A stretch of DNA of 64,000 nucleotides. Source: a bacterium. Lineage in GTDB: Bacteria > Vulcanimicrobiota > Xenobia > Xenobiales > Xenobiaceae. Shown here one piece after another: positions 16,488 through 58,167 of the stretch (position 1 is its first letter; every line of letters begins with the position of its first letter). Where the stretch lies: positions 2,282 to 66,281 of the forward strand of contig JAFTAM010000176.1 in the NCBI GenBank assembly GCA_017458675.1, read 5' to 3'. Under the pieces are notes generated by a model, which saw only the letters and a list, made by a program, of their open reading frames with translations, was not told the DNA's origin and did not search any database. A program made the position numbers and the translations under genes.

Positions 16488-16678
16488 CCGATATCATAAA
16501 GTTAAGGCAAAATATTGCTAACAAAGGTACATTAGCTTGTTTTACCAATGTTTGTAAATGTTTCTCCTGTCATTCTGAGCGCAGCGAAGAATCTATCAAT
16601 TACGTTCTGCGTGTTTTCGTAATGCCGGTTTTTATTAAGCATGGATGCTTAACTTCGCTTTTGCTTAGCTTACCGACA
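16488..16678 (-). repeat. Dispersed intergenic repeat, copy E (shorter, internal deletion)
   Basis: Reverse complement of CTGTCGGTAAGCTAAGCAAAAGCGAAGTTAAGCATCC...GATAGATTCTTCGCTGCGCTCAGAATGACAGG...TTGCCTTAACTTTATGATATCGG. Ends 30 nt upstream of the minus-strand start of 15702-16457. Confidence 0.8.
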
Positions 16679-16698
16679 GAAACACTAAGCAATCGCAT

Positions 16699-17001
16699 TT
16701 ACTTTCCTTCATAATCAGAAAAGTTCCCAGCGATCTTTCCGGCCTTAAAAGCGCGGATCTCATAATCGGCCAGACCGCCCTCATAATAGACGTCCTCTTT
16801 GAGAATCTCCTCAACGGCTTCGCGGGTAGGCGCAGCGGTAATCATAATGCCGGCCGTCTCTTTATCGGTATAAGGCCCCACCAGCAGGAAATTCCCCTTC
16901 TCAAAATGGCGGGTAAACCATTCGATGTGCTTTTTAAAGAGCTCCTCGCCGCGGCCGGCGGGAATTTTCTCCGGTTTCAACGTCTGATTTATAATAAACA
17001 T
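16699..17001 (-). CDS. YciI-like family protein
   Basis: 100 aa. Has HIEWFTRHFEKGNFLLVGP...AAPTREAVEEILKEDVYYEGGLADYE, matching the YCII dimeric alpha/beta barrel signature. Confidence 0.6.
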   Translation of the reverse strand: MFIINQTLKPEKIPAGRGEELFKKHIEWFTRHFEKGNFLLVGPYTDKETAGIMITAAPTREAVEEILKEDVYYEGGLADYEIRAFKAGKIAGNFSDYEGK

Positions 17002-17097
17002 GCCGCTTTCTCTCCTTATTGCAGATGTTTGCAGCCGTCGGCATACAGAACTTACTTATTCCCGGTTCTGCGTCTTGCAGAATTCAAATATATCAGC

Positions 17098-17706
17098 TTA
17101 CCGCCCGCCGCTTTCAGCCCTGAAAGCTTTTTTCATTTCCAAGCCTGCCCGGAAGGCGTCTCCGGCCTTTTTGCCGATAGTCAGATACTGCCCCTGTTCT
17201 TCGTCATAGATGAGCGGATTGAGCTTATCCAGCAAAACGCGCGCTTTATCGTTCAAAATACTTTCATCGGCCAAAATCCGTTTCACCTGGCCGGTTAACT
17301 GCATATGCGAGCCGACGGTAACGTTATGAACCAGCTCGCATTCCAGCGACAGACGAAGCTCGTTGATAATCGGCGCATGAACAGTGCAGGCCTCGCTGAC
17401 CGTAAAACCGACGTTTTTCAGCTTGTCCGCGCTGTAGCCGGTCTCTGAGCCGAGGTAGTCGGCCTCGCTGACCTGATCTGCGCCGGGAAAGCCCAAAACG
17501 AACGCCTTGCTCTGCAAAATACTCTGCAGCGTTTTCCGCTTCTGTGTGGCGTTGATAGCAACGGTTACGCAAGGCGGAACATGGCTGCTGACCATGTAAA
17601 ACGCCAAAGTGCAGGCGTCGGCCTTTCCGCTGCCGTCATAGGCGGATACGATAACGGTCTCCGTAGGAGCGACCAAAGCCCTCAGCTTCAATTCTTCTTT
17701 TGCCAT
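17098..17706 (-). CDS. Flavin reductase-like (FMN-binding split-barrel) family protein
   Basis: Segment TETVIVSAYDGSGKADACTLAFYMVSSHVPPCVTVAIN is typical of the flavin reductase-like domain. Confidence 0.6.
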   Translation of the reverse strand: MAKEELKLRALVAPTETVIVSAYDGSGKADACTLAFYMVSSHVPPCVTVAINATQKRKTLQSILQSKAFVLGFPGADQVSEADYLGSETGYSADKLKNVGFTVSEACTVHAPIINELRLSLECELVHNVTVGSHMQLTGQVKRILADESILNDKARVLLDKLNPLIYDEEQGQYLTIGKKAGDAFRAGLEMKKAFRAESGGR

Positions 17707-17877
17707 AATAATCTCCCTGTACTCAGATTATAAACTTGCAGCAGCGTTCCGCTCCGCAGCTGCGCTTCGCTCACAAAGCTCGCTCCAGAGCAGAACAGGT
17801 ACGCCGTAAGCCTGTTTTTGCACAAAATATACTTGCGCTGATTCCTGCAGGCCTGACTAAACCGATACAGCAATTTT

Positions 17878-18636: not shown

Positions 18637-18702
18637 AAGATCCTCGCATAAGTAAAACTTTTTCTGAAATATCCCATCATTGGCAGGAAACGTCGACTGC
18701 AA

Positions 18703-19197: not shown

Positions 19198-19224
19198 ACA
19201 AAACTGCCCCTTTCTGCCGAAACT

Positions 19225-20724: not shown

Positions 20725-20748
20725 CGTCTTTATTCCTATCTGAAGCCT

Positions 20749-22602: not shown

Positions 22603-22654
22603 ACCGCTGAATTCTCCGCCCGGCAAGGGCCTCCTATAATTGCCGCCCCGCTTC

Positions 22655-22900: not shown

Positions 22901-22912
22901 AACTGCGCCGCC

Positions 22913-23896: not shown

Positions 23897-24074
23897 AATT
23901 CATACCGTCTTTCCGTTCAAAAGGGAAATTTACAGATATTTGAAGCAAAATAATCTCCTCGGGTTTCCTGTAAATTTGCGGTTTATATGCGTTGATTCCT
24001 TTTATATGAGAGCCTCCCGGCGGAAAAACTTTCAGCTTTGCCGTCGCTGTCGGCAAGTTAAGCAAAAACATATC

Positions 24075-24225
24075 TTTTACATCAAAGATCCTTCTCACGA
24101 AGGCTCATTGACCGGCTCAAGATGACAAACACTCTGTCATTCTGAGCGGCAGCGAAGAATCTATATCTTTTACATCAAAGATCTTTCGCCGGACGCTCAT
24201 TGACCGGCTCAGGATGACATCGGCC
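24075..24225. repeat. Tandem pair of ~60-bp units each ending in GGCTCA[AG]GATGACA, with one full core (24135-24167)
   Basis: TACATCAAAGATCCTTCTCACGAAGGCTCATTGACCGGCTCAAGATGACA...TGTCATTCTGAGCGGCAGCGAAGAATCTAT...TACATCAAAGATCTTTCGCCGGACGCTCATTGACCGGCTCAGGATGACA. Confidence 0.8.
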
Positions 24226-26061: not shown

Positions 26062-26724
26062 ATGAATAAAACATGGCGCGCGGCAGCCTTTGCATCTCTT
26101 TTAGCGTGTTTAATTGGAACAGCTGATATAGATATTGCGTTTGCCCAAAATAATTATCCTAAGGCTTCCCGCAAAAAACCTCGCCAGACGGTCACCGCTT
26201 CTCAAAGCGTTACCCAGGACGCTGCAGGTACTTCCGGCCAAAGTTCCGGATATGTTTCCGAAGAAGAGTTAGAGCGGATGCGCCAGCGACAGGCAGCCAA
26301 CGAAGCGTATAAAAAAAGCGCCATAAAATCAGCTCAGCAGGACACTGAATATGATCGCGAACGCGACAAGCTGCGCAATGATCTTGTAGATTTTGATCTG
26401 TCTTATTTGGACAGCAGGATAGAAGCTTCCAGGAATACTTTGCCCCGTCTGCGCAAGAACGTCTCCGATTTGGAGGATAGCTTGGGCGACGACTCTATAC
26501 GAAAACTGCAGAGAGAAGAATTGGCAGAACTCAGGGAGCTTTTGGAAGAGTATAACAACAATAAAATCGCTTACGCTTCCCAACCCAAAATTCAAGCCCA
26601 AATAATTTCCAAGTACAGAACCTTAGCCGATTTAAAGTGCAAATATGTGGAAGTCTACGAACAGGTTTTAGACAAACGCGGTATAAGCAATTACACTAAA
26701 GCGCGCTCTTTGCTTAAGTTCTGA
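26062..26724 (+). CDS. Secreted coiled-coil protein, paralog A (conserved AQNYPKASRKKP N-terminal motif)
   Basis: AGGAG RBS. Signal peptide. Charged, heptad-rich body. Paralogous to 27065-27748. Confidence 0.5.
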   Translation: MNKTWRAAAFASLLACLIGTADIDIAFAQNNYPKASRKKPRQTVTASQSVTQDAAGTSGQSSGYVSEEELERMRQRQAANEAYKKSAIKSAQQDTEYDRERDKLRNDLVDFDLSYLDSRIEASRNTLPRLRKNVSDLEDSLGDDSIRKLQREELAELRELLEEYNNNKIAYASQPKIQAQIISKYRTLADLKCKYVEVYEQVLDKRGISNYTKARSLLKF

Positions 26725-26778
26725 TTTTGTGTCATGCGGAGCCGATTTTTTACCGTTTTACAGGCGCCGATCCAATAT

Positions 26779-27032
26779 CGGTAAGTTAAGCAAAAACAGG
26801 CTTTAAGCAGACATTCCTAATAAAGGTTTTCTTTGACGCGTACGCGGAGATTCGAGCGTAAGCGAGCGCGGAGCGGTAGCGACAAAGAAAACCGGCATAA
26901 CGAAAACAAGTTAAACATGCTTGAAAGATTCTTCGCTGCGCTCAGAATGACAGAAGAAACATTTACAAGCCTAATGCAGAGATACTCTTGTACCATTTTT
27001 AGCAAGTTATTGCCTTAACTATATGACATTGG
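26779..27032 (+). repeat. Dispersed intergenic repeat, copy A (full length ~250 bp)
   Basis: CGGTAAGTTAAGCAAAAACAGGCTTTAAGCA...core TTGAAAGATTCTTCGCTGCGCTCAGAATGACAG (26923-26953)...3' tail TTGCCTTAACTATATGACATTGG, ending 33 nt before the ATG of 27065. Confidence 0.85.
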
Positions 27033-27064
27033 GTACCGATCAATGTTTTTTTCAGGAGGTTGTA

Positions 27065-27748
27065 ATGAATAAGCGGTTGCTGAGAGCGGCAATGTTTTTG
27101 GCCGCGGTTTGTTGTTGTTTGGCTTCGGACGGTTTTGATACCGCCCAGGCTCAGAATTATCCTAAGGCTTCCCGCAGAAAACCGAGCGCGGCTGCGAAAC
27201 CTGCTGTTCCTGCGGCAGCGACTTCTGTAAATACCTCTGATTCTTCCGACGCCGACCTCAGCGACGAAGAGCTGCAGAAGGCCAAAGAACGTCAGGCCGA
27301 GTATGAAAAGCTGCAAAAACAGGACGCCGAATTCAACAGCTGGAAGCAGCAAAATGAAATCAACAAAAAGAATCAGGCTAGGAAAGAATATAATAAGAGA
27401 GTATCCGATGATATTATAATGGAGAAGTATGCCGTCAACAGCTGGCAGGGATTGGCAGACAGCGGCTATGCCAAAATGATGACATCCGGGACAACCGAAA
27501 ATTTATTGCAAGAGCATAAGAGCCAATATAACGACATTAAGCGATTATTCGATAATTATCGAAAAGGTTTTGAGCCTCATTGGCTCTACCCGGATATACA
27601 GGCGTCCGACGCGGATCTAAAAACATACAGAGAACTTTTAAATAAGGAAATAAATATTAGAGTATCTATCGTACGGGCCTATGAACGCGAACTTAAAAAA
27701 CGCAATAATTATAATTTTAATCCCGTGGATAACCTCTTTAGCAAATAA
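27065..27748 (+). CDS. Secreted coiled-coil protein, paralog B
   Basis: GGAGG RBS before ATG 27065 (the track ORF starts 14 codons earlier). Same AQNYPKASRRKP motif after the signal peptide. Preceded by dispersed-repeat copy A. Confidence 0.5.
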   Translation: MNKRLLRAAMFLAAVCCCLASDGFDTAQAQNYPKASRRKPSAAAKPAVPAAATSVNTSDSSDADLSDEELQKAKERQAEYEKLQKQDAEFNSWKQQNEINKKNQARKEYNKRVSDDIIMEKYAVNSWQGLADSGYAKMMTSGTTENLLQEHKSQYNDIKRLFDNYRKGFEPHWLYPDIQASDADLKTYRELLNKEINIRVSIVRAYERELKKRNNYNFNPVDNLFSK

Positions 27749-27792
27749 TGAGCCTGATGTTTGTCAGCTCCTTCGCTGCGCTCATAAAGACA

Positions 27793-27855
27793 AAAAAAAG
27801 CGGCGCGCTGCTTTCCTCAAAAAAAACAGTACGCGCCGCCTCCCGTTTTCCCCGG
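27793..27855. terminator. Possible bidirectional terminator between convergent genes
   Basis: GCGGCGCGC (27800-27808) pairs perfectly with GCGCGCCGC (27832-27840), flanked by an A8 run and a T-rich stretch. The loop is long (23 nt), hence low confidence. Confidence 0.35.
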
Positions 27856-45946: not shown

Positions 45947-46051
45947 CCGATACCACCCTGTTTTAAGGCTCGGAGCTTAAGCCGCAGCTGCTGTCCGAGC
46001 CGTTTTCTGTTTTACAGAATAATTCAAAATAATTAAACGGACCATCAGAAC

Positions 46052-49000
46052 ATGTCAGATAATCACTGCGATATAGCTATAGTCGGAATGGGACTGCACT
46101 TTCCCGGCGCGGACAGTCCCGAACAGTATTGGAAAGCTCTGCAGAGAGGCGAAGATCTCGCCCGCCCCATGGATGAAAAGAGACGCAAGGTTTCCCTAAA
46201 CGGCCTGATCAGTCCACAGACCAAAGCCGACGCTATGCGCTGCGACAGGGGATATTTTTTAAACGCTCTGCCCACGCCTCAGCAGCTTGATCTTCCCGAG
46301 GGAACAGACCCTCTTTTTGTTTTGGCATTAAGTACGGCGGAGCAGGCCTTAAAGGACGCCGGCAAGCTGCCGTCGGAACAGACCGGCGTCATTATGGCCT
46401 CCATCGCCCTGCCCACCGATACCACCTCGGCCCTGAGCGAAAGCACGCTGGGACGCAGCTTTGCCGAGAGCCTGCAGGCCAAGCTGCCGCCGGATAAAGC
46501 CTCGGCCGTCTCACCCGCCGAACTGCTGCCCTGCGAATATACTTTCCTCAGCAGCGTCTCCGACAGCAGCGAACAGGTTAAAGCTCTGAACAATTACCCG
46601 GTCGGACTTCCGGCTCAGCTGATCGCCTCCCGTTTCAGCCTGGGACTGGGAGCTTACACTTTAGACGCGGCCTGCGCCTCCTCGCTGGTAGCTATCGAGC
46701 TGGCCTGCCGGGAACTGCGCAGCGGGCGCGCCGAGGCCATGTTGGCCGGCGGCCTCTCCCGCCCCGACTGCCTCTACACTCAAATGGGCTTTTCCGCCCT
46801 CCACGCCCTCTCGCCCAGCGGCGCATGCTCTCCTTTTGACAAAAAAGCCGACGGACTTATGGTCGGCGAAGGCTGCGGTCTGGTCGTTCTGAAACGCCTG
46901 AAAGACGCCGAACGCAGCGGCGACAAAATTTACGGAGTCATTAAAGGAACAGGTCTTTCCAACGACATCGAAGGCAGTCTGGTGGCCCCGGCCAACGAGG
47001 GGCAGATCCGCTGCCTCCGGGACGCCTATCAAATCTGCGGCCTGAAGCCCTGGGATATAGACTTTATCGAATGCCACGGAACCGGCACACCGGTAGGCGA
47101 CAGCATTGAGTTCAAAAGCCTGCAGACTCTCTGGGAAGGAGCTCCCGAAAGCAGCCGCTGCCAGCTCCGCTCCGTCAAATCCATGCTGGGCCATTTATTG
47201 ACCGCCGCCGGTTCCGCCGGCTTAATCAGAGTGCTCTTAAACCTGCAGAAGGGGCAGATCACGCCGCAGGTCAACTTCAATGAAGCGGGCATACCTCTGA
47301 AAGAGAGCCATTTTGAAATATCCAATCAGTCCGTATCCTGGCCGAAAAAGGCCGAGGCTCCCCGCCGGGCCGCCGTCAGCGGCTTCGGCTTCGGCGGCAT
47401 CAACGCCCATTTAATTATCGAAGAATATCTGCCTCAGACAGCCTGCGAAGTCAACAGCGCGGCAGACGCACGGGCAACCGCTTCCTCCGCGCCCGCCTCT
47501 GCAGAAGAATCTGAAAACGGCGAAGAAGCGGCCGCCATTATCGGAATGGCCTGCCGCTTAGGCCAAATCGGCAGCATTCGCGAACTGGCCGGCGCTTTGT
47601 TGGACGGAAATTTTGAAAATGCAAAAATTTCGCCGGAGCCGTCCGCTCAGACATGCGAAAAATCCCGTCAGGGCGGCGCTTTCCTGAACAAGGTCGACAT
47701 ACCTATAGGGCGCTTCCGCATCCCTCCCGCCGATCTGCCCTCCATTCTGCCTCAGCAGTCCCTGCTTTTAAATACGGCCGCCGAGGCTATGCTCGACGCC
47801 GGTCAGCCCCTGCGCCTGCAGCGCGAGAGAGCCGCTGCGGTTATCGGCATAAATCTCGACTTAAATTCCACAAATTTCAATCTGCGCTGGCTGTTAAAAG
47901 ACAAAGCTGAAATCTGGGCGCAGAATTTAGGCTTAGACGAAAATGAAGCCAAGAGATGGCAGGAGGCCCTCAAGGATGAAATCTCCGAGCCCCTGGATGC
48001 GGTAAAAACTATCGGCGCTTTAGGCAGCATCGCAGCCAGCCGCGCCGCCCGCGAATTCCGTTTCGGCGGATGCTCTTTTACGGTGTCTTCCCAGGAGCTG
48101 TCCGGCTTTGACGCGCTGCAGATAGGCGCAGAGGCTCTGCTGAACCGCCGTCAGGATTTAATATTAGTCGGCTCAATAGACCTTCAGGGAGATCCGCGCC
48201 TGGCCTCCTGCCGCTTAAAAGACGAACCCATGCCCGAAAAATACGGAGAAGGGTCCTGCTGCCTGGTTTTAAAGAGGTACAGCGACGCCGTAAAGGACGG
48301 AGACCACATTTATGCGCTCATTAAAGGCTTGGCCAAAGCTGGCGCGGCCGCCCCGGAGAAAGACTCCTATACCGCTTTGGAAACGGCTTTGCGGCAGGCC
48401 TGTGAATACTCAGGAACACCGGCCGAAGACATTGCCTATCTGGAAACGGTCAACGGGCAATATCTCAGTCAGGGTCCCCAGAGCGCCTGTCAGACCCTGC
48501 GCCGCGTCTTGGACAGAGGGACCAAACCTCTGAGCGCGGGCAGCATTGAGGATTACGTCGGCCATAACGGCGCAAATTCCTTTACAGCCTCCCTGATCAA
48601 AACCGCCTTATGTCTCGACCAGGAGCTCTGGCCCGCCTCCAGACATTTTGACAGACTCTGCGGAGACGCAAACGATTGGCGCGGCAGTCGCTTTACCGTA
48701 CAGAAAACTTCATCTTTCTGGTTCAGAAACCGAGCTGAGGGGCCGCGGCGGGCCTTAGTCTGCGGGCGAGCCTACCCCGGTCAGTATGCCGCCGCCGTCT
48801 TAGAAGAACATTTTTCCGACGCTTACAGACCTCTGGCCGCTCCGCAGCTGCAGATCGGGATCTGGCCCTTCTTCGGCGAAAACGCCCAGGCGATAACCGC
48901 CAAACTGTCGGCGGTCCTGGAAAAAACTAAAGAGCTGCAGTCCCTGTCTGCGTCGGCTTCAGAGCAAAGCCGCCTGCTCCGGAACTTATGCCTGGATAAT

Positions 49001-52000
49001 TACCGCAGGGAAAAGGAAGAAGGAGCATCCCGCCTGTGTCTGGCCATAGCCAGCGACAGAAAAAACTCCGCTCCCCTCGCGGAATTCCAAAAACAGCTGG
49101 AAACAGCTCTGCAACATCTGCAGACCTCGCCCGAACAGGAACTGCGCCAGAATTCAATATTCTACAGCGCCGAGCCGCTGGCAAAATCCGGAAAAACAGC
49201 CTTTGTCTATCCCGGTTCAGGCGCAAATTTCTTAGGTTTGGGGCGCGAATTCGCTCTCAATTTCCTGCCTCTCATGCATCGCTTCGACCGCGAAAATCTG
49301 TATATGGCCGGCGAATTTGCCGCTAAATACAATCAGCCTCTGCGCCTGGACTGGTCTGAAGGCTGGCAGCAGAGAGCCGTACAGGAGCTGCAGGCCGACA
49401 CTCATCATATGATGTCCAGCCAGGTGAGCTTCGCCATGCTGACCACTGATATCGCGCGCTCTCTGGGTATAGAGCCGAACTGCGCCATAGGCTACAGCCT
49501 GGGCGAATCCTCGGCCCTCTTCTCTCTGCGGGCCTGGCCGGACCGCGATAAGATGTATCTGCGCATGGAGGGCTCCGATCTCTTCCGGGAGAAACTTTCC
49601 GGCAAATGCACGGCCGCCCGTCAGGCCTGGCACATTCCCGAAAACGCTCCCTTCAGTTGGAGCGCCGCCCTCTTGCCCGTACCGGCCGATAAGGTTAAAG
49701 AGGCGCTCAAGAATGTTAAAAACGCGCGTCTGCTGATTATCAATACCGACAAAGAGTGCGTAGTCGGCGGAACTCCCGAAGGCATTGACGAACTTTGCGC
49801 TCTGCTGCATACCAAAGCCATTAAAGTCAGCGGCGTAGATACCGTACACTGCGACTGTCTGGAGCCTGCGGCTGAAGAATATTGGCATATGCACCATCTG
49901 CCCTGCCAGCCTCTGCCCGGGGTTGAGTTCTACAGCGGCTGCAAAAACTGCGCATATCCTCTTACTTCAGAAAATATCGCCGACTCAATCGTCTCCCACG
50001 GACGGTACGGTTTTGATTATACAAAAACCATTCGCCGCGCCTGGGAGGACGGGGCCCGCATATTCCTTGAGATGGGACCGGGCTCTTCCTGCGCCCGCAT
50101 GATCCGCAGTATACTGCGCGGCAAACCACATTTTGCCATTAGCCTGAGCGGACGCGGCCAATCGGAGATGTTCTCCCTGGCCCAGTTCCTGGCAGGCGTT
50201 CTGAGCCAGGGGCTCCGTCCCGATCTCAGCCCGTTCTTCCCCTCGCTGCAGGCTGAAAAAGCAGAAAAGACGACGCCCACCCTGACCGTCCCGCTGAGCC
50301 GCCGTCCCTGCGATCCTCCGCTTCCCGCTTTTCCGAAAGCTTTATTCTCTGAAGGCACAAATACCGCTATGACCCAGAAAATTAAAACCGATTTGACGCT
50401 CGAATCCGAAACTGTCCCTGTCGAAACCGCAAAACCGGCCGAAGGCAGGACGCTCACAGAAATAACTGCGCTCAGCGCTGCCGAGGCAGCTTCAGTTCCG
50501 GACGCTCCGAAATGCGTCTGCGCCGATCCTCTGCAGAGTCTGCTTATGCAGCTGGCCCGAAATTCAAATTCAGCCCACCGGAAATGGCTTGAATTTGTCG
50601 GACAAAGCGCTAAAGTCTGGGAAAACCTTCTGGTCGGTCAAAGCAGCCTTATCTCCCAGGCCGCCGCCGGCAATCCGCAGCTGTTCAGGGAGCCGCTGAC
50701 AGTTGAAAAACCGTCGGAAGCCGCGCCTGTCTTATCCCCGGCGGCCCAATTTGCGCCTCATTCAGAAGATAAAGACCAAACTCACAAAGAGCACGGCTAC
50801 ACTCATAAGCTGCACGGCATCGAAACTACCGCCGACGGAGGCTATATCTGCGGCTTTAAGCCCAGCCTGGCCCCGCCCGATCAAAAGGTATTTTTAAACC
50901 GTCGGCAGTGTCTTGAATTTGCTACCGGCAAAATCGGCGACGTCTTGGGCGAACAGTTTGCTCCCATAGACAGCTATGCCGCCCGAGTGCGCCTTCCTGC
51001 CGAACCCTTGATGCTGGTAGACCGCATCGTTTCCATTGAAGGCGAACCTCTCAGCTTAGGCGCCGGACGCATAATTACCGAGCACGACGTCGTCCCCGAT
51101 ATGTGGTATCTCGACGGAAACCGCGCCCCGGTCTTTATTTCCGTGGAAGCCGGCCAGGCCGACCTGTTCCTGTGCAGCTGGCTGGGCATAGACTTCCAGG
51201 CCAAGGGCGACAGAGTATACCGGCTTTTGGACGCCAACGTCAAATTCCACCGCGGCCTGCCTCAGCCCAGCGAAACCGTACGCTACGATATCCGCATCAA
51301 GCGCTTTATCAACCAGGGAGAGACCTGGCTCTTCTTCTTTGAATACGAAGGAACTATCAACGGCGAGACCTTCCTGACCATGCGCGATGGCTGCGCCGGC
51401 TTCTTTACTCAGGAGGAGATCCGCAATAACGGCGGCCTGGTCATGACCGAAGCCAGCCTGCGCCCTCAAAAAGGCAAAAAAGGTCCGGAAGTCCAGGAAC
51501 TGACTCCTCTGAGCGCTTCCAGCTACACGCTGGAACAGGTCGAGGCTCTGCGCCGCGGCGATCTCGAGGGCTGCTTCGGCGCCGCCTTCGCCGGTCTGAA
51601 TCTGAAGAAGCCCGTAAGCCTGCCCGCCGGTCTGCTGCGCCTGATCCACCGCATCCCCGAATGCGACCCCTTCGGAGGACGCTGGGGCCTGGGCAAGGTG
51701 GTGGCCGAAGCCGACGTCCATCCCGAAGACTGGTATCTGACCTGCCACTTCATAGACGACATGGTCATGCCGGGAACCCTGATGTACGAATGCTGCGCTC
51801 ACGCTCTGCGCTTCCTATTAACCCGCTTTGGCTGGGTAGGCGAACAGGATAAAATTGCCTATGAACCGGTTCTGGGCGTCACCGCCGTACTCAAATGCCG
51901 CGGCCCGGTTCTGCAGACCACCAAGACCGTGCGCTACCAGGTTGAGATTAAGGAAATGGGCTACAACCCGGCGCCTTACGTCATTGCCGACGCTATCATG

Positions 52001-53380
52001 TACGCCGACAACAAGCGCATAGTGGGCTTTGAAAACGTTTCCATGCAGCTGACCGGCACAACCGGCGAAGAGCTGGAAAAGCTCTGGGCTGAGCGCAGCG
52101 CTTCTTCCCAAAACGCAGCTATTGAGCCGGGAAGCGCCTGCACTGACGACTGCGGCGACCCCAGAGCCGCCAATCCCGGCGATCTCAGCCATGCCGACGG
52201 CCGTTTAGGTCTGCTGCCCGCTTATAAAAATGTTACCATGAACGGCGATCCTCTCAAGGAAGCCATATTTACCGAGGAAAACTTCCGCCAATTTTCCGTA
52301 GGTCAGCCCAGTCTGGCCTTCGGCAAGGCTTTCAGGCCCTTCGACTCCCGATTTATAGCCCGCCTGCCGGGAGTGCCCTATCAGTTCGTAAACCGCATCG
52401 TGAGCGCCGATCATCCCTTCTTGGAGACCAAAGCCGGCGGCTGGGTAGAAGCGCAGTACGACGTACCGGCCAACGCCTGGTATTTTAAGGCCAACAAGAC
52501 CGGAGCCATGCCCTTCTGCGTAATAAATGAAATCGCGCTGCAGGTCTGCGGCTGGGTCTCCAGCTATGCCGGTTCTTCCCGCCACAGCTCGGATCCCTTA
52601 TATTACCGAAATTTGGGCGGAACCTCCGTGCTGCGCAGGGAAATTACTCCTCAAACCGGACGCATAACCATTAAGGTGCGCATGACTAAATCCTCGGAAG
52701 CAGGCGGACTGATCATTCAATCCTTTGATATGAAAATCGAGCAGAAGGGTGAAGTTATATATGAAGGCACGACCACCTTCGGCTTCTTCACTAAGCAGGC
52801 CCTTGCCGATCAGGTAGGCATCCGCGGCTGGAAGAGCAGAATTTGGCTGCCCGAGCAGGAAAATACGCCCGAAAGTCTGCCGATACAGCATCCCTTAAGC
52901 CCCTATGACGAAAATCTCGAGCAAAGCGGCAGCCTGGAACTTCCCGCCAAGGCTCTGCTGATGCTGGACAGCTTCGCCTGGTATCCTCAGGGCGGAAGCA
53001 AGGGACTGGGTGCGGCGGTAGGACGCAAAAAGATCGATCCCAAGGAATGGTTCTTCACCGCCCACTTCTTCCAGGATCCGGTCATGCCCGGCTCCTTAGG
53101 CTTAGAAGCCTTCCTGCAGGTACTTAAGGCAGCCGCCTTAAAACTGTGGCCCCACTTGCAGAAGACCCATCGCTTCAGCGCTATAACCGCCGGTTCTCCT
53201 CATACCTGGCTCTACCGGGGACAGGTTACCCGCGCCAATTCCTTTACAACCGCAAGAGCTGAGATAACCGAAATCCATGACGGTCCCGAGCCGTATCTGA
53301 AGGCCCGAGGCTTCCTGCAGGCCGATGATTTAACTATTTACGAGCTTCAGGATTTCGGCATAGCTCTGCTGAAAAGCTGA
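46052..53380 (+). CDS. pfaC: PfaC-like protein with integrated acyltransferase: KS-CLF-AT-DH(FabA-like)x2
   Basis: KS motifs LDAACASSLVAIEL, ECHGTGTPVGD, KSMLGHLLTA. A second KS-like domain lacks the active Cys (chain-length factor). AT motif AIGYSLGESSALFSL (~nt 49490). Two FabA-type hotdog pairs with CHFIDDMVMPG (~nt 51740) and AHFFQDPVMPG (~nt 53060). Ends ~110 aa after the last DH. Confidence 0.9.
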   Translation: MSDNHCDIAIVGMGLHFPGADSPEQYWKALQRGEDLARPMDEKRRKVSLNGLISPQTKADAMRCDRGYFLNALPTPQQLDLPEGTDPLFVLALSTAEQALKDAGKLPSEQTGVIMASIALPTDTTSALSESTLGRSFAESLQAKLPPDKASAVSPAELLPCEYTFLSSVSDSSEQVKALNNYPVGLPAQLIASRFSLGLGAYTLDAACASSLVAIELACRELRSGRAEAMLAGGLSRPDCLYTQMGFSALHALSPSGACSPFDKKADGLMVGEGCGLVVLKRLKDAERSGDKIYGVIKGTGLSNDIEGSLVAPANEGQIRCLRDAYQICGLKPWDIDFIECHGTGTPVGDSIEFKSLQTLWEGAPESSRCQLRSVKSMLGHLLTAAGSAGLIRVLLNLQKGQITPQVNFNEAGIPLKESHFEISNQSVSWPKKAEAPRRAAVSGFGFGGINAHLIIEEYLPQTACEVNSAADARATASSAPASAEESENGEEAAAIIGMACRLGQIGSIRELAGALLDGNFENAKISPEPSAQTCEKSRQGGAFLNKVDIPIGRFRIPPADLPSILPQQSLLLNTAAEAMLDAGQPLRLQRERAAAVIGINLDLNSTNFNLRWLLKDKAEIWAQNLGLDENEAKRWQEALKDEISEPLDAVKTIGALGSIAASRAAREFRFGGCSFTVSSQELSGFDALQIGAEALLNRRQDLILVGSIDLQGDPRLASCRLKDEPMPEKYGEGSCCLVLKRYSDAVKDGDHIYALIKGLAKAGAAAPEKDSYTALETALRQACEYSGTPAEDIAYLETVNGQYLSQGPQSACQTLRRVLDRGTKPLSAGSIEDYVGHNGANSFTASLIKTALCLDQELWPASRHFDRLCGDANDWRGSRFTVQKTSSFWFRNRAEGPRRALVCGRAYPGQYAAAVLEEHFSDAYRPLAAPQLQIGIWPFFGENAQAITAKLSAVLEKTKELQSLSASASEQSRLLRNLCLDNYRREKEEGASRLCLAIASDRKNSAPLAEFQKQLETALQHLQTSPEQELRQNSIFYSAEPLAKSGKTAFVYPGSGANFLGLGREFALNFLPLMHRFDRENLYMAGEFAAKYNQPLRLDWSEGWQQRAVQELQADTHHMMSSQVSFAMLTTDIARSLGIEPNCAIGYSLGESSALFSLRAWPDRDKMYLRMEGSDLFREKLSGKCTAARQAWHIPENAPFSWSAALLPVPADKVKEALKNVKNARLLIINTDKECVVGGTPEGIDELCALLHTKAIKVSGVDTVHCDCLEPAAEEYWHMHHLPCQPLPGVEFYSGCKNCAYPLTSENIADSIVSHGRYGFDYTKTIRRAWEDGARIFLEMGPGSSCARMIRSILRGKPHFAISLSGRGQSEMFSLAQFLAGVLSQGLRPDLSPFFPSLQAEKAEKTTPTLTVPLSRRPCDPPLPAFPKALFSEGTNTAMTQKIKTDLTLESETVPVETAKPAEGRTLTEITALSAAEAASVPDAPKCVCADPLQSLLMQLARNSNSAHRKWLEFVGQSAKVWENLLVGQSSLISQAAAGNPQLFREPLTVEKPSEAAPVLSPAAQFAPHSEDKDQTHKEHGYTHKLHGIETTADGGYICGFKPSLAPPDQKVFLNRRQCLEFATGKIGDVLGEQFAPIDSYAARVRLPAEPLMLVDRIVSIEGEPLSLGAGRIITEHDVVPDMWYLDGNRAPVFISVEAGQADLFLCSWLGIDFQAKGDRVYRLLDANVKFHRGLPQPSETVRYDIRIKRFINQGETWLFFFEYEGTINGETFLTMRDGCAGFFTQEEIRNNGGLVMTEASLRPQKGKKGPEVQELTPLSASSYTLEQVEALRRGDLEGCFGAAFAGLNLKKPVSLPAGLLRLIHRIPECDPFGGRWGLGKVVAEADVHPEDWYLTCHFIDDMVMPGTLMYECCAHALRFLLTRFGWVGEQDKIAYEPVLGVTAVLKCRGPVLQTTKTVRYQVEIKEMGYNPAPYVIADAIMYADNKRIVGFENVSMQLTGTTGEELEKLWAERSASSQNAAIEPGSACTDDCGDPRAANPGDLSHADGRLGLLPAYKNVTMNGDPLKEAIFTEENFRQFSVGQPSLAFGKAFRPFDSRFIARLPGVPYQFVNRIVSADHPFLETKAGGWVEAQYDVPANAWYFKANKTGAMPFCVINEIALQVCGWVSSYAGSSRHSSDPLYYRNLGGTSVLRREITPQTGRITIKVRMTKSSEAGGLIIQSFDMKIEQKGEVIYEGTTTFGFFTKQALADQVGIRGWKSRIWLPEQENTPESLPIQHPLSPYDENLEQSGSLELPAKALLMLDSFAWYPQGGSKGLGAAVGRKKIDPKEWFFTAHFFQDPVMPGSLGLEAFLQVLKAAALKLWPHLQKTHRFSAITAGSPHTWLYRGQVTRANSFTTARAEITEIHDGPEPYLKARGFLQADDLTIYELQDFGIALLKS

Positions 53381-53489
53381 ATTTGTTAAAATTTATTAAA
53401 TAATTGATTCAGAGTTTACATTTTTACAACACATAGACAGCGACATAATGCTATTATTAAAATGAAATATTTTATCGGAGGATAACAAG

Positions 53490-54374
53490 ATGTTTACTCC
53501 CGGTGTACCTTTCGGTCCCAACCCCTTCGGGGGTCCGTTAGGCATGGGCATGGGCGTAATAGGTCCTGCCGCTGTGCTGGCCCAGAGTTCGGCCATGACC
53601 GGAGCGGCAACCTTAGCCTATACCGTCGGCGCATTCAACACCGATATGCTGGGCGCCGCAATCTGCGCAGAAGCGCTGGGCGGTCCTCAGTTTGAATACG
53701 CCATGGGCGGTTATGCCGGCTCTATAGCCGGACAGGGAATCGGCGGTCTTTTAGGCATAGGCCTCGGTTCATATTTCGGCGGTCCGATGGGTATAATCGG
53801 CGGCGGAATGCTCGGCTCGATCTTAGGCGGAGGTATCGGCGGCGATTTGGCCAGAGATCTCTTTACTCCGGTTCCTTTCCCGCAGGACTCTTTCCCGCAG
53901 GACTCCTTCCCGCCCGGATCCTTCCCTCCGGGGTCTGTCCCGCCCGGGTCTTATCCGCATTACGGCAGCGGCCCGGTTTACACTCCAACTCCAACCCCTT
54001 CTCCCAGCACGGATACGGATAACACAAAAAAGGATAACGATTATCCTTATACTCCGCCCCCGCCGCCAGACTTTTACGGTCCCGGCCGCTTTGGCCACCA
54101 TCGCCGCCATCCCGGCGGTCCCTTCGGTCCGCGTCCGTTCCCCGGCGGTCCCTGGGGTCCCCGTCCCGGCGGACCTTACGGTCCCAGATATCCCGGCGGC
54201 TACGGCCCTCGTCCCTATCCGGGGACTAATCCCAGCACAAATCCGGGTTCTTATATTCCGCGTCCTCCTGTTCCTCCCGTGCCTCCGCGCCATAGCCGCG
54301 GTCCCGGCGGACCGGGCGGCCCCGACGGTCCTGACGGCCACGGTCCCAGACGCAGACGCGAGCTGCATTTCTAA
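53490..54374 (+). CDS. Glycine-zipper / Pro-Gly-rich small protein, paralog 1
   Basis: GGAGGATAACAAG RBS-leader. N-terminus MFTPGVPFGPNPFGGPLGMGMG. Gly-zipper hydrophobic segment GIGGLLGIGLGSYFGGPMGIIGGGMLGSILGGGIGG. C-terminal PGGPxGPRP repeats. Confidence 0.55.
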   Translation: MFTPGVPFGPNPFGGPLGMGMGVIGPAAVLAQSSAMTGAATLAYTVGAFNTDMLGAAICAEALGGPQFEYAMGGYAGSIAGQGIGGLLGIGLGSYFGGPMGIIGGGMLGSILGGGIGGDLARDLFTPVPFPQDSFPQDSFPPGSFPPGSVPPGSYPHYGSGPVYTPTPTPSPSTDTDNTKKDNDYPYTPPPPPDFYGPGRFGHHRRHPGGPFGPRPFPGGPWGPRPGGPYGPRYPGGYGPRPYPGTNPSTNPGSYIPRPPVPPVPPRHSRGPGGPGGPDGPDGHGPRRRRELHF

Positions 54375-54592
54375 GCCTTCTGATTTTAAACAAAGCAGGC
54401 TGAATTTCAGCCGCAAGTGTTTTTCTAAAAAAGCATCTTTATTCGCATAGGCAGAACGCCCTTAAAAAGCCGTATGCCCTGGATATGTGATAAATAGAAA
54501 GAATATTCAGTCCGACGCGCATATCTTTACGGCTGCTGCAGTAAGGAGCCTATCTGCCTCGGATAGAAAGATTATCTACGGAGGATAACAAA

Positions 54593-55372
54593 ATGTTTAT
54601 TCCCGGTGCACCTTTTGGTCCCAATCCGTTCGGCGGTCCGTTCGGCATGGGCATGGGTATGATGGGTCCTGGCCCGCTCATGGGCGCAGGAACCGCTTTA
54701 GCCGGAGCCGCTACCCTGGCTTACGGCGTAGGCGCTCTTAACACCGCTATGCTGGGCGCCACTCTCGGCGGCGGAATGATGGGCTGCCCCCAGATGTCCA
54801 ATGGCATGGGCGGCTTTGCAGGTTCTGTCGTCGGTCAGGGAATCGGCGGACTCTTAGGCATGGGCTTAGGCTCTTCTATCGGCGGCCCTATGGGAATGGT
54901 CGGCGGCGGAATGCTCGGCTCGATCTTAGGCGGAGGTATCGGCGCCAAGATCGGTAATGACATGCAGCAGGCCAGACAGGCTTATCAGCAGCCTCCACAG
55001 CCCGGCCCCGAACCCGGCCCGGTCAGAAGCGATGAAGCTTCCAGTACCGTAGGCGACGCTCTTAAAGGCGCGGCTATCGGAGGCGCAATCGGTTTAGGCG
55101 CCGCTGCCATAGCCAACTCAGCCAGCGCCAGCTTCTTCCCGCCTCCTCCTCCGCCTCCCGGCGGTCCCTTCGGCGGTCCTTTCGGTCCCGGTCCCCGACC
55201 CGGCGGCCCCTTCGGCGGTCCCTTCGGTCCCGGTCCCCGACCCGGCGGCCCCTTCGGCGGTCCCGGTCCCCGTCCCGGCGGTCCCTTCGGCGGTCCCCAT
55301 CCTCACCACGGTCCTCATCCCGGCGGTCCCTTCGGCCCCGGTCCTCACCGCGGTCCCGGTTTTCCATTTTAA
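54593..55372 (+). CDS. Glycine-zipper / Pro-Gly-rich small protein, paralog 2
   Basis: Identical GGAGGATAACAAA leader. N-terminus MFIPGAPFGPNPFGGPFGMGMG. Same Gly-zipper block. C-terminal (GGPFGGPFGPGPRP)n. Terminator follows. Confidence 0.55.
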   Translation: MFIPGAPFGPNPFGGPFGMGMGMMGPGPLMGAGTALAGAATLAYGVGALNTAMLGATLGGGMMGCPQMSNGMGGFAGSVVGQGIGGLLGMGLGSSIGGPMGMVGGGMLGSILGGGIGAKIGNDMQQARQAYQQPPQPGPEPGPVRSDEASSTVGDALKGAAIGGAIGLGAAAIANSASASFFPPPPPPPGGPFGGPFGPGPRPGGPFGGPFGPGPRPGGPFGGPGPRPGGPFGGPHPHHGPHPGGPFGPGPHRGPGFPF

Positions 55373-55394
55373 TAAATAGCTTTTGAACGTACAA

Positions 55395-55430
55395 GCGGCT
55401 TCTGCAGATTCGCAGAAAGCCGTTTTTTTA
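55395..55430 (+). terminator. Rho-independent terminator
   Basis: CGGCTTCTGC-loop-GCAGAAAGCCG followed by TTTTTTTATT, 20 nt after the 55372 stop. Confidence 0.65.
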
Positions 55431-55545
55431 TTGTTATTTGGCTAAACGCAGCGCCTCTCGGAGCCGGCCGGCTTACTGGCCTTAAACTTTATTTAATGAA
55501 GCTCGGGGGCGCGCCGAAGCAAAGAAGCAACGCCTATCGTCAATG

Positions 55546-55770
55546 TCGGTAAGCTAAACAAAAACTAGCTTTAAGCAGGCATGCTTAACAGAGGATTTGC
55601 CCTGCACAAAAGCGAGCGTCCGAGCCGAAGGCGCCGCGAAGCGAAATACAAATCAAAGCCGGCTCAGCGAAAACATACAGAACATGTTTGAAAGATTCTT
55701 CGCAGCGCTCTCAATGACAGAGTAAACGATTAAGAGTATAATTGTTCGCCTTATAAATACCGACCTGAGT
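55546..55770 (+). repeat. Dispersed intergenic repeat, copy B (more diverged)
   Basis: TCGGTAAGCTAAACAAAAACTAGCTTTAAGCAGG...GAAAGATTCTTCGCAGCGCTCTCAATGACAG...TTCGCCTTATAAATAC. Forms the left flank of the AT-rich island. Confidence 0.75.
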
Positions 55771-56926
55771 ACTTATACATGTCAGTTGAGGACAATAATT
55801 CTGTTCTATAATACAATAAATACAGAAATACTGTACAATAATTCAGCCGGTTTGCATTGCTGTAAGTATTATTGCACACAAAAAAATGAGGCTGGCAGCA
55901 ATCGGCACAGCCTCATATTACTCAAAATACATATTCAAATGCCGAAAATATTCAGAGTCCCTCCCGCTGCAGCATTTTGAATACATATTCTTAAAATTCC
56001 GTCAGATATCGCAGTCAACAAAATGAAGCTTATTATACTGCAATTCCAAGGTAAGGTCGTCATCTCTGATAATGCATAAGCTCTGTTTTCCCCGTATTAT
56101 GAGCTATGCACAGCAGAGACTACAAAAACGGTATTTCTGAAATATCTTCAGCATAATAACATACTCTTCCCCTAAGAGAGACAATAAAAGTATTATTGCC
56201 ATTATTTGCTGAAGAATTAGAAAAGAAACTCAGCCCGCCGCCATTATTGTTCTGCAATAATGCCCAGAAATAACTGATTGGAACAGATAATGACATAAAA
56301 GATACAGCATTTATTGCTAAACTGACAATAAAAACGGTTAAGGTATGACCTTCTTTTCAACACTAATTGATATCATCTCCATTTCGGATATGACTCATTG
56401 TTTGTTTTCATTCCTTTTCACTAAACTGACCTGTGAAATACTGTCAGCAATATTTCACCTATGACAGCTGCGTTTAATTATCCCCCACGACAGCTGGTCA
56501 CGTTGTCACAAAATCGGCCTTAAGAATGAAAACCCGTCTCAGAATTCGATAAAGCATCCCTATAGACAATCACAAATGATACTGATAATACAATAAAGAT
56601 AAACTCGTCAGGTAAAACTAATCTGTCGCGAACAATAATACACTCAGAACATCAAATAAGCCTTGCAATAACCTGTCAATACGCCTGATAACGACATTAT
56701 GACAATATAATGCTTCCATCTTCCCCACCCTCTTACTGGTCTGGACATCAATTAATTGCTGTCCTTTTGTAGTATTATAATACCACAGCAGACAATAATA
56801 ATCAACACCTATTTATATTATTGTATAACATTTTTGGTACTTTCTTCAGACCATGATCGAAGCGTGATAACATAATACTGACGCAGCTCCGCTATTTTAA
56901 ACCTGCCAGATAAAAGATACTCACTG
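55771..56926. other. AT-rich (about one-third GC) gene-less island flanked by direct copies of the dispersed repeat
   Basis: Sampled lines give ~30-35 percent GC against a ~58 percent background. No ORF of 60 aa or more except the weak 55786-55980. Contains hairpins and dyads (55886-55916; GTGAAATA-n9-TATTTCAC at 56436-56460; duplicated GACAGCTG at 56464-56498). Confidence 0.6.
55879..55916 (-). terminator. Orphan rho-independent terminator (minus strand) inside the AT-rich island
   Basis: Minus-strand reading shows ATGAGGCTG-loop13-CAGCCTCAT followed by TTTTTTT. No ORF of 60 aa or more on the minus strand upstream of it (55920-56900). Confidence 0.5.
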
Positions 56927-57179
56927 CCGGTAAGTTAAGAAAAACAGGCTTTAAGCATACACGCTTAATAAAGGTTTTCTTTGACGCGTACGCGGAGATT
57001 CGAGCACAGCTTCGCGCGGAGCGGCAGCGACAAAGAAAACCGGCATAACGAAAACATGCAGAACATGATTGAAAGATTCTTCGCTGCGCTCTCAATGATA
57101 AGGGAAACACTCTTAAGCATATACAGACAAGCTTTTATGCCATTTTCGGCAAAATCTTGCCTTAACTATATAACATTGG
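56927..57179 (+). repeat. Dispersed intergenic repeat, copy C
   Basis: CCGGTAAGTTAAGAAAAACAGGCTTTAAGCATAC...GAAAGATTCTTCGCTGCGCTCTCAATGATAAG...CTTGCCTTAACTATATAACATTGG. Forms the right flank of the island, ~115 nt upstream of the HAD gene start. Confidence 0.85.
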
Positions 57180-57292
57180 TCTTATGCGGCAAGTTATTTT
57201 TAGCCAAGCTAACATTTTCATCAGTTAAGTTTTCCATAAATACCGGATATGTAGTAAAATACATATCCATTTAAACGGAGCGGAAAAAAACA

Positions 57293-57955
57293 ATGAAGTC
57301 TTTTACAACCTGCATATTTGATATGGACGGAGTTCTGTTAGATTCAGAGCCCTTCTGGCGTCAGGCCCAGATGCGGATTTTCGCTGAAGTCGGTCTGAAT
57401 TTAAACGAAGAAGACTGCCGGCAGACAACTGGGATCCGCATTGACGAACTGGTAAGATTCAGATACGGCCAACAGCCTTGGACCGGCCCTTCCTGCGCTG
57501 AGGTTTCGGCACAAATCCAAAATACGGTAGGCCTGCTAATTTCACAGCACGGAAGAACCCTGCCGGGCGTCAGAGAAGCTGTTAATTTTATGCGATCCCA
57601 AGGGCTGAGACTGGCGCTGGCCTCTTCTTCCTCGCTGCAGCTCATTGACATCACCCTTAAGACCTTAGGACTTCAAAATTGCTTTGAGCTCATCCATTCA
57701 GCCGAAAACGAACCCTTAGGCAAGCCGCATCCGGCCGTCTTTCTGCATACGGCTGAAAAGCTGGGCGAAAAGCCGGTAAGCTGTCTGGTAATCGAAGATT
57801 CCTTAAATGGAGTAATAGCCGCCAAAGCTGCTCAAATGACCTGCGTTGTCGTTCCCGACCGTGCCGATAACGATAACCCTAAATTCATAATCGCCGATCT
57901 GACTCTGAAGAATCTGACGGAGCTGCCAGCGCGCTGGCCCGACATAGTAAAGTAA
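57293..57955 (+). CDS. HAD-superfamily sugar-phosphate phosphatase (beta-PGM/YniC-like subfamily)
   Basis: Motif I FDMDGVLLDSEP. Motif III GKPHPAVF. Motif IV EDSLNGVIAAKAA. Confidence 0.8.
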   Translation: MKSFTTCIFDMDGVLLDSEPFWRQAQMRIFAEVGLNLNEEDCRQTTGIRIDELVRFRYGQQPWTGPSCAEVSAQIQNTVGLLISQHGRTLPGVREAVNFMRSQGLRLALASSSSLQLIDITLKTLGLQNCFELIHSAENEPLGKPHPAVFLHTAEKLGEKPVSCLVIEDSLNGVIAAKAAQMTCVVVPDRADNDNPKFIIADLTLKNLTELPARWPDIVK

Positions 57956-57957
57956 GA

Positions 57958-58167
57958 TTATGCTTAGCAAATAATTGGGCTTTGCCTCATCATCCTGAGC
58001 GCAGCGAAGAATCTTTCAGCATGTTTTACATGTTTTCGCTGTGTCGGTTTTCTTTTGCACTTCGCTCCGCGCTCGCCGTAACCGGAGCTCGGACGCTCGC
58101 TTCAGAGCAAAACAAAACCTGTGTATAACATGTCTGCTTAAAGCCTGCTTTTGCTTAACTTACCGAC
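57958..58167 (-). repeat. Dispersed intergenic repeat, copy D (inverted orientation, between convergent genes)
   Basis: Reverse complement of GGTACTGTCGGTAAGTTAAGCAAAAGCAGGCTTTAAGCAGACATG...GAAAGATTCTTCGCTGCGCTCAGGATGATGAGG. Confidence 0.8.

Follow-up and report, generated by a model that had tools for sequence, protein, structure and literature searches.

The closest described relatives of the repeats considered here are small tagged hairpins and the mosaics that contain them. The CGTC-tagged superfamily of repetitive extragenic palindromic (REP) sequences, as presented in the survey by Di Nocera, De Gregorio & Rocco (2013, BMC Genomics 14:522; PMC3733652), occurs in several phyla, includes dRS3 of Neisseria and RPE-4/RPE-6 of Rickettsia, and follows one design: an unpaired CGTC tag (with the variants TGTC and CCTC), a stem of 8 to 9 bp with A-T at its first two positions, a loop of 4 to 5 nt, a 3-nt tail that is mostly CCA, and dimers. 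That survey found no enzyme mobilising these sequences. In NIMEs (intergenic mosaic elements of Neisseria), dRS3 hairpins (ATTCCC-N8-GGGAAT) flank modules of 50 to 150 bp from more than 100 families, in arrays noted as unseen outside Neisseria (Bentley et al. 2007, PMC1797815). Here, we describe a repeat family in a window of 64,000 nucleotides, which is the whole stretch of DNA analysed (positions 2,282 to 66,281 of contig JAFTAM010000176.1, assembly GCA_017458675.1). The family is modular and intergenic, has no conserved open reading frame (ORF) and bears imperfect inverted ends in three copies, and the hairpin at its core has covarying arms and is found across bacteria. We consider it probable that the element is a non-coding, non-autonomous, lineage-private mosaic repeat of the kind represented by miniature inverted-repeat transposable elements (MITEs), bacterial interspersed mosaic elements (BIMEs) and NIMEs, organised around a TGTC-tagged REP hairpin. 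The core fits an already known, widespread class of tagged hairpins; the lineage-private composite around it is new.

The original prediction of a dispersed family with five copies (A to E) and a partial one proved real. All five copies could be aligned with MAFFT, with pairwise identities of 69 to 83% over common columns, and each copy used as a BLASTN query against the window retrieved the other copies at E-values of 1e-19 to 1e-71. A nhmmer profile made from the five copies and searched against the 64-kb window matched A at 26776-27032 (+), C at 56924-57179 (+), D at 58169-57972 (-), B at 55544-55739 (+) and E at 16679-16488 (-), with E-values of 1e-80 to 2e-49 and no further match of similar score in the window, while the partial copy was matched at 5406-5508 (E = 4e-10). 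The predicted coordinates were good within a few bases; for copy D the location (57958-58167) held, but the family similarity stops near 57972. The copies are 190 to 265 nt in size, and five of them plus a partial copy in 64 kb is, as had been claimed, a high local density. Copies A and C are the closest pair, though 30 kb separate them, and B and C, with only 1.4 kb between them, are 70% identical.

Read in the orientation of the original prediction, a full copy runs from an end block through a palindrome of ~70 nt, a linker and a core to a tail. The end block has (C)CAATGTCGGTAAGYTAAGCAAAA, then a second TTAAGCA and, after 4 nt, the inverted TGCTTAA, with two direct TTAAGCA motifs and one inverted. 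B, C and E have the resulting 7-4-7 (18-bp) palindrome, TTAAGCA-N4-TGCTTAA, in perfect form, A and D in degenerate form. In the long palindrome the outer arms GGTTTTCTTTG and CAAAGAAAACC pair across 11 to 13 bp, the linker carries the invariant CGAAAACA, the core reads AGATTCTTCGCTGCGCTCAGAATGAC, and the tail of A, C and E is 85 nt long and terminates in TTGCCTTAACTWTATRAYATYGG. The sequences that do not vary across copies are CGGTAAG, TTAAGCA, CGAAAACA and AGATTCTTCGC. Copy A, delimited by alignment, BLASTN and profile at 26770-27035 (+), has all of these parts: the left inverted repeat and 5' block (26770-26810), a degenerate small hairpin (26803-26826), the long palindrome (26825-26894), the linker (26895-26922), the core hairpin (26926-26953) and the tail (26954-27035), which includes the right inverted repeat (27006-27035). 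In A, C and E, the tail closes with ~25 nt that repeat, imperfectly and in inverted orientation, the initial ~25 nt of the element. In copy A the left end CCAATATCGGTAAGTTAAGCAAAAAC matches the reverse-complemented right end, CCAATGTCATATAGTTAAGGCAATAAC, imperfectly over ~25 to 30 nt, in E the match covers 13 to 14 nt (AAGYTAAG(G)CAAAA), in C it is limited to the 7 nt of AGTTAAG, and B and D have no right end. The 38-bp inverted repeat of the Tn3 family (GGGG...ACGYTAAG) was considered for these ends and rejected, as a GG-rich stretch ~40 nt upstream of TAAG is found in D and E only.

The element is a mosaic of modules that also exist apart from each other. Copy C (56921-57179, +) is full length with its tail and has two mismatches in a core arm (TCAAT for AGAAT). 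Copy E (16488-16681, -) has the tail and an intact core and misses precisely the long palindrome, 73 nt, at a junction where CATGCTT is joined to AATAAAAACCGG. Copy B (55541-55739, +) consists of the 5' block, a perfect small hairpin (TTAAGCAGGCATGCTTAA), the long palindrome, the linker and the core, which has two arm mismatches identical to those of C, and copy D (57972-58170, -) extends from the 5' block through the core. Neither B nor D has the family tail: both depart from the family ~15 to 20 nt past the core and continue into unrelated sequence, and what stands in place of the tail resembles that of A no more than shuffled sequences do (42/300 and 57/300 shuffles, respectively, equalled the observed score). 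The partial copy (5406-5565, +) has neither 5' block nor core; it combines a variant of the long palindrome and the linker (5406-5508) with a marginal tail-like stretch at 5533-5565, the score of which was equalled by 6/300 shuffles. In pattern searches of the window with at most one mismatch, the 5'-block pattern had six matches, namely, the five copies and a solo block at 24052, and with up to three mismatches it had seven (1.1 expected); the core pattern, with up to three mismatches, had five matches (0 expected), two of them solo cores beyond the family; and the tail pattern matched A, C and E only (0 expected). Thus, of the three parts that had been described as common to the copies, the 5' block is present in all five, but the tail is restricted to three, and the core, with ~15 solo sites, is not specific to the family. 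Two observations on copies B, C and D stand beside these results. B and C, only 70% identical overall, both read TC in place of AG in the core arm, and B (+) and D (-) are an inverted pair (55541-58170) with 82-nt arms that are 79% complementary. This pair encloses 2.2 kb with an AT-rich stretch, copy C and a HAD hydrolase gene, a layout like that of a composite transposon.

The element encodes nothing, because the reading frame that crosses the core changes register in D and meets early stops in B and E; no conserved ORF was present in the copies, and a small protein was rejected as a candidate on the same ground, the frame through the core not being conserved. It is palindromic. The minimum-energy fold of copy A joins both ends, with the whole element folding end to end at -69.4 kcal/mol on one strand and -70.8 kcal/mol on the other, and the long palindrome alone, folded as DNA, gives -19.3 and -17.1 kcal/mol for the two strands (z = -4.1 and -3.9). 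We regard these structures as DNA palindromes rather than strand-specific RNA because both strands fold equally well. Folding and covariation had been proposed as a check for a structured RNA, and part of what they returned is what a non-coding RNA gene or a riboswitch-like leader would leave behind: the long hairpin is retained in four copies with 4 pairs altered on both sides, the full-length folds have z-scores of -2.5 to -2.8, and three copies occupy the position of a 5' leader. However, an RNA of this type is highly improbable. The likeness of the two strands is that of DNA palindromes, copies do without whole structural modules (E, the partial copy, B and D), two copies lie upstream of no gene, the genes downstream of the others have no common pathway, and no conserved promoter-terminator pair surrounds the unit. 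The window gave no match to Rfam at the gathering threshold, and at E-values up to 10 there was only noise in 55400-58300 (copies B to D) and 3200-5700 (hairpin arrays and partial copy). Two RNA motifs were tried and rejected for the core: the hammerhead, as CUGA-stem-GAA is present without the GA needed for CUGANGA, and the K-turn, as there is no 3-nt bulge.

The core has a life of its own within the window, where it occurs solo at ~15 more intergenic sites, in both orientations and often in alternating pairs. On the opposite strand it reads TGTC, ATTCT, GA, GCGCAGC, GA, AGAAT, CT, and in general form it consists of GTC, an arm of 5 bp, GA, a mini-hairpin rich in G+C, a second GA, the arm complementary to the first, and CT. 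The window hairpins, ~16 intergenic copies in 64 kb with inverted pairs among them, use the arm pairs ATTCT/AGAAT, ATCCT/AGGAT and ACCCT/AGGGT, and the unpaired tag is TGTC in 15/16 and CGTC in one. Taken as 9 nt, the arms (ATYCTGAGC and GCGAAGRAT) begin with A-T and T-A, with G.A at two positions that are not Watson-Crick. A loop of 3 nt (GAA/GCA) is the most common; elsewhere, GC-rich inserts of 7 to 21 nt take its place, and the mini-hairpin in the middle is 7 to 21 nt long.

To follow the hairpin beyond the window, a GTCATYCTGAGCGMAGCGAAGRATCT pattern was scanned in one genome per species, with the two variable arm positions left free independently. This 26-nt pattern matched exactly at no fewer than 120 loci, in species representatives that span at least a dozen phyla; the matches listed include Saccharibacteria, Acidobacteriota, Nitrospirota, Nitrospinota, Chloroflexota, Gemmatimonadota, Omnitrophota, Planctomycetota, Verrucomicrobiota, Bacillota, Proteobacteria and Bacteroidota, the last, for example, with Phocaeicola plebeius and Hymenobacter glaciei. 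Among these listed matches (loci L012-L131), the hairpins are frequently inverted pairs, 15 to 60 nt apart (e.g., L039 3710-3783, L058 2271-2343, L068 2060-2143 and L066 749-834), GTC is preceded by T in 81%, and CT is followed by C in 63%. The variable arm positions were C-G in 75 cases, T-A in 63 and mismatched in only 6 (Fisher p = 4e-33), and with looser anchors 174/198 arm pairs in the listed loci were fully complementary, compared with 66 by permutation, with at least 11 arm types. Because the arm positions covary so strongly, we conclude that the hairpin is under selection as a hairpin. Its nearest-neighbour energy of -1.9 kcal/mol is not better than that of shuffled sequences, which counts against the mosaic-repeat interpretation; the hairpin draws its support from covariation and from non-canonical pairs, and the energy model gives the tandem G.A pairs and the GC-GAA-GC mini-hairpin no credit. 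Tandem G.A pairs and GNA-loop mini-hairpins of the d(GCGAAGC) type are unusually stable in DNA. In a plasmid collection, the 28-nt core was the only part of the element that found a match, in Calothrix.

Judged by description rather than by published consensus sequences, the core fits the TGTC/CGTC-tagged REP superfamily. As the survey describes those hairpins, they share with the core, to which alone this comparison applies, the unpaired tag, 9-nt arms starting with A-T and a short unpaired tail, and they are likewise intergenic and multi-copy, often form inverted pairs with spacers of 15 to 60 nt, extend over many phyla and have no adjacent transposase. Measured against the same description, the core differs in the conserved tandem G.A in the middle of its arms, in a loop of 3 nt or with inserts up to 21 nt instead of 4 to 5 nt, in a CT(C) tail instead of CCA, and in window dimers that have their tags outward. 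The original prediction had matched the element to no named REP family; this does not hold for the core, which is a TGTC-tagged REP-type hairpin of many phyla, but it does hold for the rest. With NIMEs the window shares intergenic arrays at gene ends in which a small tagged hairpin (ATTCT/ATCCT...AGAAT/AGGAT) alternates with longer modules, here of 20 to 150 nt, from several families and recombined variously, and smaller arrays at 3317-3540, 4960-5320 and 24047-24218 likewise alternate hairpins and spacers. However, the 190- to 260-bp composite contains its dRS3-like hairpin once, at the centre, instead of at both borders, it bears its own inverted ends, and its host is related to Vulcanimicrobiota and has no RS-like sequence in common with Neisseria. 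The NIME architecture is thus analogous, and the composite is not a NIME. The Correia elements (CREE), a MITE of Neisseria, are of the same size class and are also non-coding, with inverted ends, a frequent position upstream of genes and a possible outward-facing promoter-like sequence by one end; they terminate in long inverted repeats that are nearly perfect and have a TA duplication, whereas here the ends are imperfect with no visible duplication, two of the five copies are without one end, and there is no sequence similarity. The REP/BIME sequences of Escherichia coli and the REPIN-RAYT systems offer tagged imperfect palindromes that alternate, with conserved linker motifs such as ATAYCTKTTTACAWYAA as a counterpart here, but the tag is TGTC instead of GTAG, no RAYT (Y1 transposase) gene was found in the window or by the hairpin in the loci listed, and the 190- to 260-bp composite has no BIME counterpart.

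In contrast to the core, the 5' block, palindrome, linker and tail appear, from the searches made, to be private to the source lineage. The linker-plus-core pattern had 0 matches in GTDB species-representative genomes, the 5'-block pattern had one match in JGI metagenomes, in an unrelated coding region and judged to be chance, and a BLASTN comparison of the modules with 845 kb of loci that bear the hairpin in other phyla gave no match. The four private modules were also unmatched in the plasmid collection. The translated element, used as a protein query, retrieved only core peptides from spurious ORFs, e.g., ERFFAALRMT, and literature searches by sequence string or spurious-ORF peptide returned nothing relevant. 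The host, an uncultured bacterium of gut or rumen, lies near Candidatus Bruticola: its MiaB protein shares 68% identity with the one encoded in a Candidatus Bruticola metagenome-assembled genome (Vulcanimicrobiota, class Xenobia). In ~38 kb of non-redundant sequence from relatives at 69 to 87% MiaB identity, both the composite and the hairpin were absent; the MiaB-homologue loci at 87%, 74% and 69% identity end before copy E or lose synteny, and a search with the protein encoded downstream of copy E, which has an ABM monooxygenase domain, gave no syntenic relative. There was also no copy in the 4.4 kb past the right end of the window (L010), and the proteins of the left end had no database record. 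Three contigs of the same organism (L001, L002 and L011), from two other metagenome assemblies (ERZ28653721 and ERZ28019071), terminate in the long palindrome of copy D, from both sides (58093-58105). Contig ends inside an element are the usual behaviour of repeats. Repeats such as these thus disrupt short-read assembly, and masking them in annotation is advisable, as they create spurious ORFs (...ERFFAALRMT...).

Every copy is intergenic on the ORF map of the window. Copy A lies 52 nt past the stop of the gene at 26062-26724 and ~30 to 33 nt ahead of the ATG at 27065, copy E lies 20 nt past the stop of a YCII gene (16699) and 31 nt ahead of the ABM gene ATG at 16457 (the start in the NCBI annotation is 54 nt further in), and copy C lies 114 nt ahead of the ATG of the HAD hydrolase gene (57293). 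The partial copy is ~127 to 137 nt from the ATG at 5692, copy D is flanked by the convergent stops of the HAD gene (57955) and a gene for a 461-aa protein (58191), and for copy B the next start codon is 1.5 kb away, with 1.1 kb of AT-rich DNA without a sizeable ORF between. The four start codons named in the original prediction (27065, 57293, 16457 and 5692) are all right, and the distance of 30 to 115 nt between tail and start applies to A (33), C (114) and E (31) but not to the partial copy. Similarly, the placement upstream of genes in one orientation describes A, C, E and the partial copy, but not B or D. The genes downstream of A, C and E encode an unknown protein, a HAD hydrolase and the ABM monooxygenase-domain protein; as they are unrelated, a paralogous or duplicated gene upstream region was rejected as an explanation of the repeat. 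Co-orientation with the flanking genes holds for all five copies that are informative, namely, A, B, C, E and the partial one; the probability of this by chance is ~0.03 one-sided and 0.06 two-sided, with the caveats that copy D is uninformative and that B and C occupy one intergenic region. This orientation bias is weak, as it rests on too few copies.

The position of the tail raised the question of a promoter. By eye, hexamers are present in all three tails (TTAGCA-17-TATGAC in A, TCGGCA-17-TATAAC in C and TTAGCA-17-TATGAT in E), and a sigma-70-type promoter of this form (-35 TTAGCA, 17-nt spacer, -10 TATGAY) might drive or modulate the downstream gene; transcripts would then begin a few bases past the final conserved base of the tail, with leaders of ~30 to 115 nt. 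The most suggestive point is that the tail occurs exactly in the copies that precede a co-oriented start by 31 to 114 nt, namely, A, C and E, with a marginal trace in the partial copy, and is missing from B and D, which precede no close start. Additionally, A and E leave no space for a second promoter between the tail and the ribosome-binding site, and Correia elements often precede genes and alter their expression (PMC1797815). Promoter donation is rather doubtful. In a lenient sigma-70 scan, the consensus of which may not be that of this phylum, TTAGCA-17-TATGAT of copy E passed with 9/12 positions, but this was the only one of the three tails to do so; in A and C, which failed, the -10 hexamer ends in C, and the -35 of copy C is TCGGCA. 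Conservation in the tail peaks not in the hexamers but in the spacer TTGCCTTAAC, the stretch that matches the 5' end in inverted orientation. A promoter-like TTTCCA-18-TAAAAT belonging to the HAD gene itself lies between copy C and the ATG. A and E stand between co-directional genes with no evident terminator after the upstream stop; therefore, read-through could serve the downstream gene. With three or four copies, a uniform orientation has a probability of 0.06 to 0.12 by chance. It is possible that promoter donation holds alongside the mosaic-repeat reading.

A different use by the host would be as a cis element acting on DNA or mRNA, i.e., a protein site, a stabiliser or attenuator at the mRNA 3' end, or an insulator, with the conserved blocks kept by selection. 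E. coli REP/BIME sequences act as such cis elements. By analogy with them, the role could account for the invariant blocks amid 69 to 83% identity, for the 18-bp palindrome that is perfect in three copies, for the co-orientation of all informative copies with local transcription, and for the 5' end that, in A, D and E, sits 20 to 52 nt beyond the stop codon of a gene in the same orientation; roles of REP sequences in mRNA stability and termination are documented in the CGTC survey (PMC3733652). Nevertheless, we consider it unlikely. No hairpin of the copies is followed by a T-run on the sense strand, and the genes next to the copies are unrelated in function. B and C have a broken core hairpin, and in A and D the small 5' hairpin has degenerated, which speaks against strong selection on each copy. 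Finally, the hairpin in the listed loci of other phyla has no strong orientation bias, as 34 sense and 22 antisense cases were counted between co-directional genes on a crude ORF map.

If the element is indeed a mosaic mobile-type repeat, its copies would be products of transposition or of recombination targeted to the hairpin, with the enzyme acting in trans from a gene beyond the window, and would later have diverged to their present 69 to 83% identity. The long palindrome would have been excised in E, the partial copy would reflect an internal deletion, and B and D would be products of truncation or a module swap ~15 to 20 nt past the hairpin. An autonomous partner would be recognised as an ORF between inverted CCAATGTCGGTAAGTTAAGCAAAA ends. 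Effects on neighbouring genes would be by-products, such as read-through transcripts with hairpins or a weak sigma-70-like site in the tail. We infer the mobility of the element, and several results weigh against it. There is no recognisable target-site duplication at any copy, the sole candidate being CCGAT near A, offset by 3 nt, although age may have erased such duplications. No autonomous partner or transposase was found in the window, and none recurred by the hairpin in the other phyla listed. No empty site was present among the loci of relatives, which did not span the insertion sites. The inverted-repeat match is strong in A only, the survival of invariant blocks in copies this old could mean a host function and not transposase binding, and a neutral element need not be co-oriented with genes in five of five informative copies.

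A more novel reading, which we hold to be less likely than not, starts from the hairpin itself. It would serve as substrate for a recombinase or nuclease that is specific to hairpins and very widely conserved, and NIME-like arrays would shuffle and spread private modules, the 190- to 260-bp family included, at it. No enzyme gene recurred beside it when 1600 ORFs from the 845 kb of hairpin-bearing loci listed were clustered, which gave common paralogue families only, e.g., sensor kinases. If the proposal is true, the composite family would be a traceable hitch-hiker leading to that enzyme, and a hairpin set in recognisable longer modules is a way to trace its spread and to seek the enzyme. The question of what maintains and moves the hairpin across phyla is more interesting than the composite, whose own importance is modest. 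What the composite demonstrates is the presence of dense, modular repeats between the genes of an uncultured Vulcanimicrobiota lineage from gut or rumen, and these repeats may influence the expression of neighbouring genes.

The solo modules are organised as follows. Upstream of a leucine-rich repeat (LRR) gene, 3317-3540 holds four TGTC/CGTC-tagged hairpins in alternating orientation (3332-3369, 3380-3405, 3427-3450 and 3513-3535), and an array of five follows at 4960-5320 (4977-5002, 5035-5060, 5159-5182, 5204-5227 and 5292-5315), where a unit of one hairpin and then a terminator-like stem with a T8 run (CAGCCGCTTTTCTGCAGCTTCCAAGCTGCCGGRCGGCTGTTTTTTTT) is duplicated at 5022-5125 and 5279-5385. 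The solo 5' block TCGGCAAGTTAAGCAAAAAC (24047-24070, +) directly abuts three TGTC-tagged hairpins at 24088-24218. Tag-outward hairpin pairs at 3380-3450, 5159-5227 and 24136-24218 are separated by the conserved 17-nt spacer ATAYCTKTTTACAWYAA (at 3405, 5185 and 24160). The partners of such a pair differ in their arms (ATTCT with ACCCT or ATCCT); therefore, the pair cannot make one long hairpin. Two sites between convergent genes have two hairpins each. That at 8412-8545 (hairpins 8412-8442, with a degenerate tag, and 8514-8540) has the half-site repeat TGTCATCCTTGAGCC ahead of the hairpins, and that at 15473-15620 (15501-15527 and 15592-15615) also has a half-site at 15572-15585 and the 5'-block-like stretch GTTAAGTTAAGAATCTTAAAAAC. 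A degenerate solo core is located at 27757-27799 (+), right after the stop of the gene at 27065-27748. Full hairpins are often preceded by one to three tandem copies of the 5' half only (TGTCATCCTGAGC plus ~7 nt, with a period of ~20 nt), and such runs were seen in the window at 15560-15615 and 8488-8540 as well as in unrelated phyla (loci L040, L053 and L069). The ATG at 24214 that opens the longest ORF of the DUF4127 gene falls within the hairpin CTCAGGATGAC, and the true start of this gene is probably further downstream.

Other observations concern the surroundings of the copies. The 1.1-kb stretch between B and C (55770-56900) has 36 to 40% G+C, compared with 54% for the window, and it contained no ORF longer than 64 aa and gave no match to Rfam or to phages. 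The ABM gene (15702-16457, -) has its closest named homologues, 72% identical, in Schwartzia and Selenomonas (Negativicutes), while the MiaB gene 3 kb from it groups with Xenobia/Vulcanimicrobiota, and these affinities may reflect gene transfer in the rumen. A large polyketide-type cluster occupies 37345-53380 (+), with a 549-aa FabD/enoyl-reductase-like protein followed by ORFs of 2321 and 2442 aa, and has no repeat copy inside. It is followed by two adjacent paralogues without a Pfam match (53490-54374 and 54593-55372), which have G+C-rich internal repeats and are 73% identical over their first 300 nt. An HTH_17 protein encoded at 8614-10248 (-) has a long run of 9/18-nt acidic repeats, a BspA-type LRR protein has PT repeats at 3643-3966, and the ORFs at 1-3300 resemble shadows of a long minus-strand gene that leaves the window.

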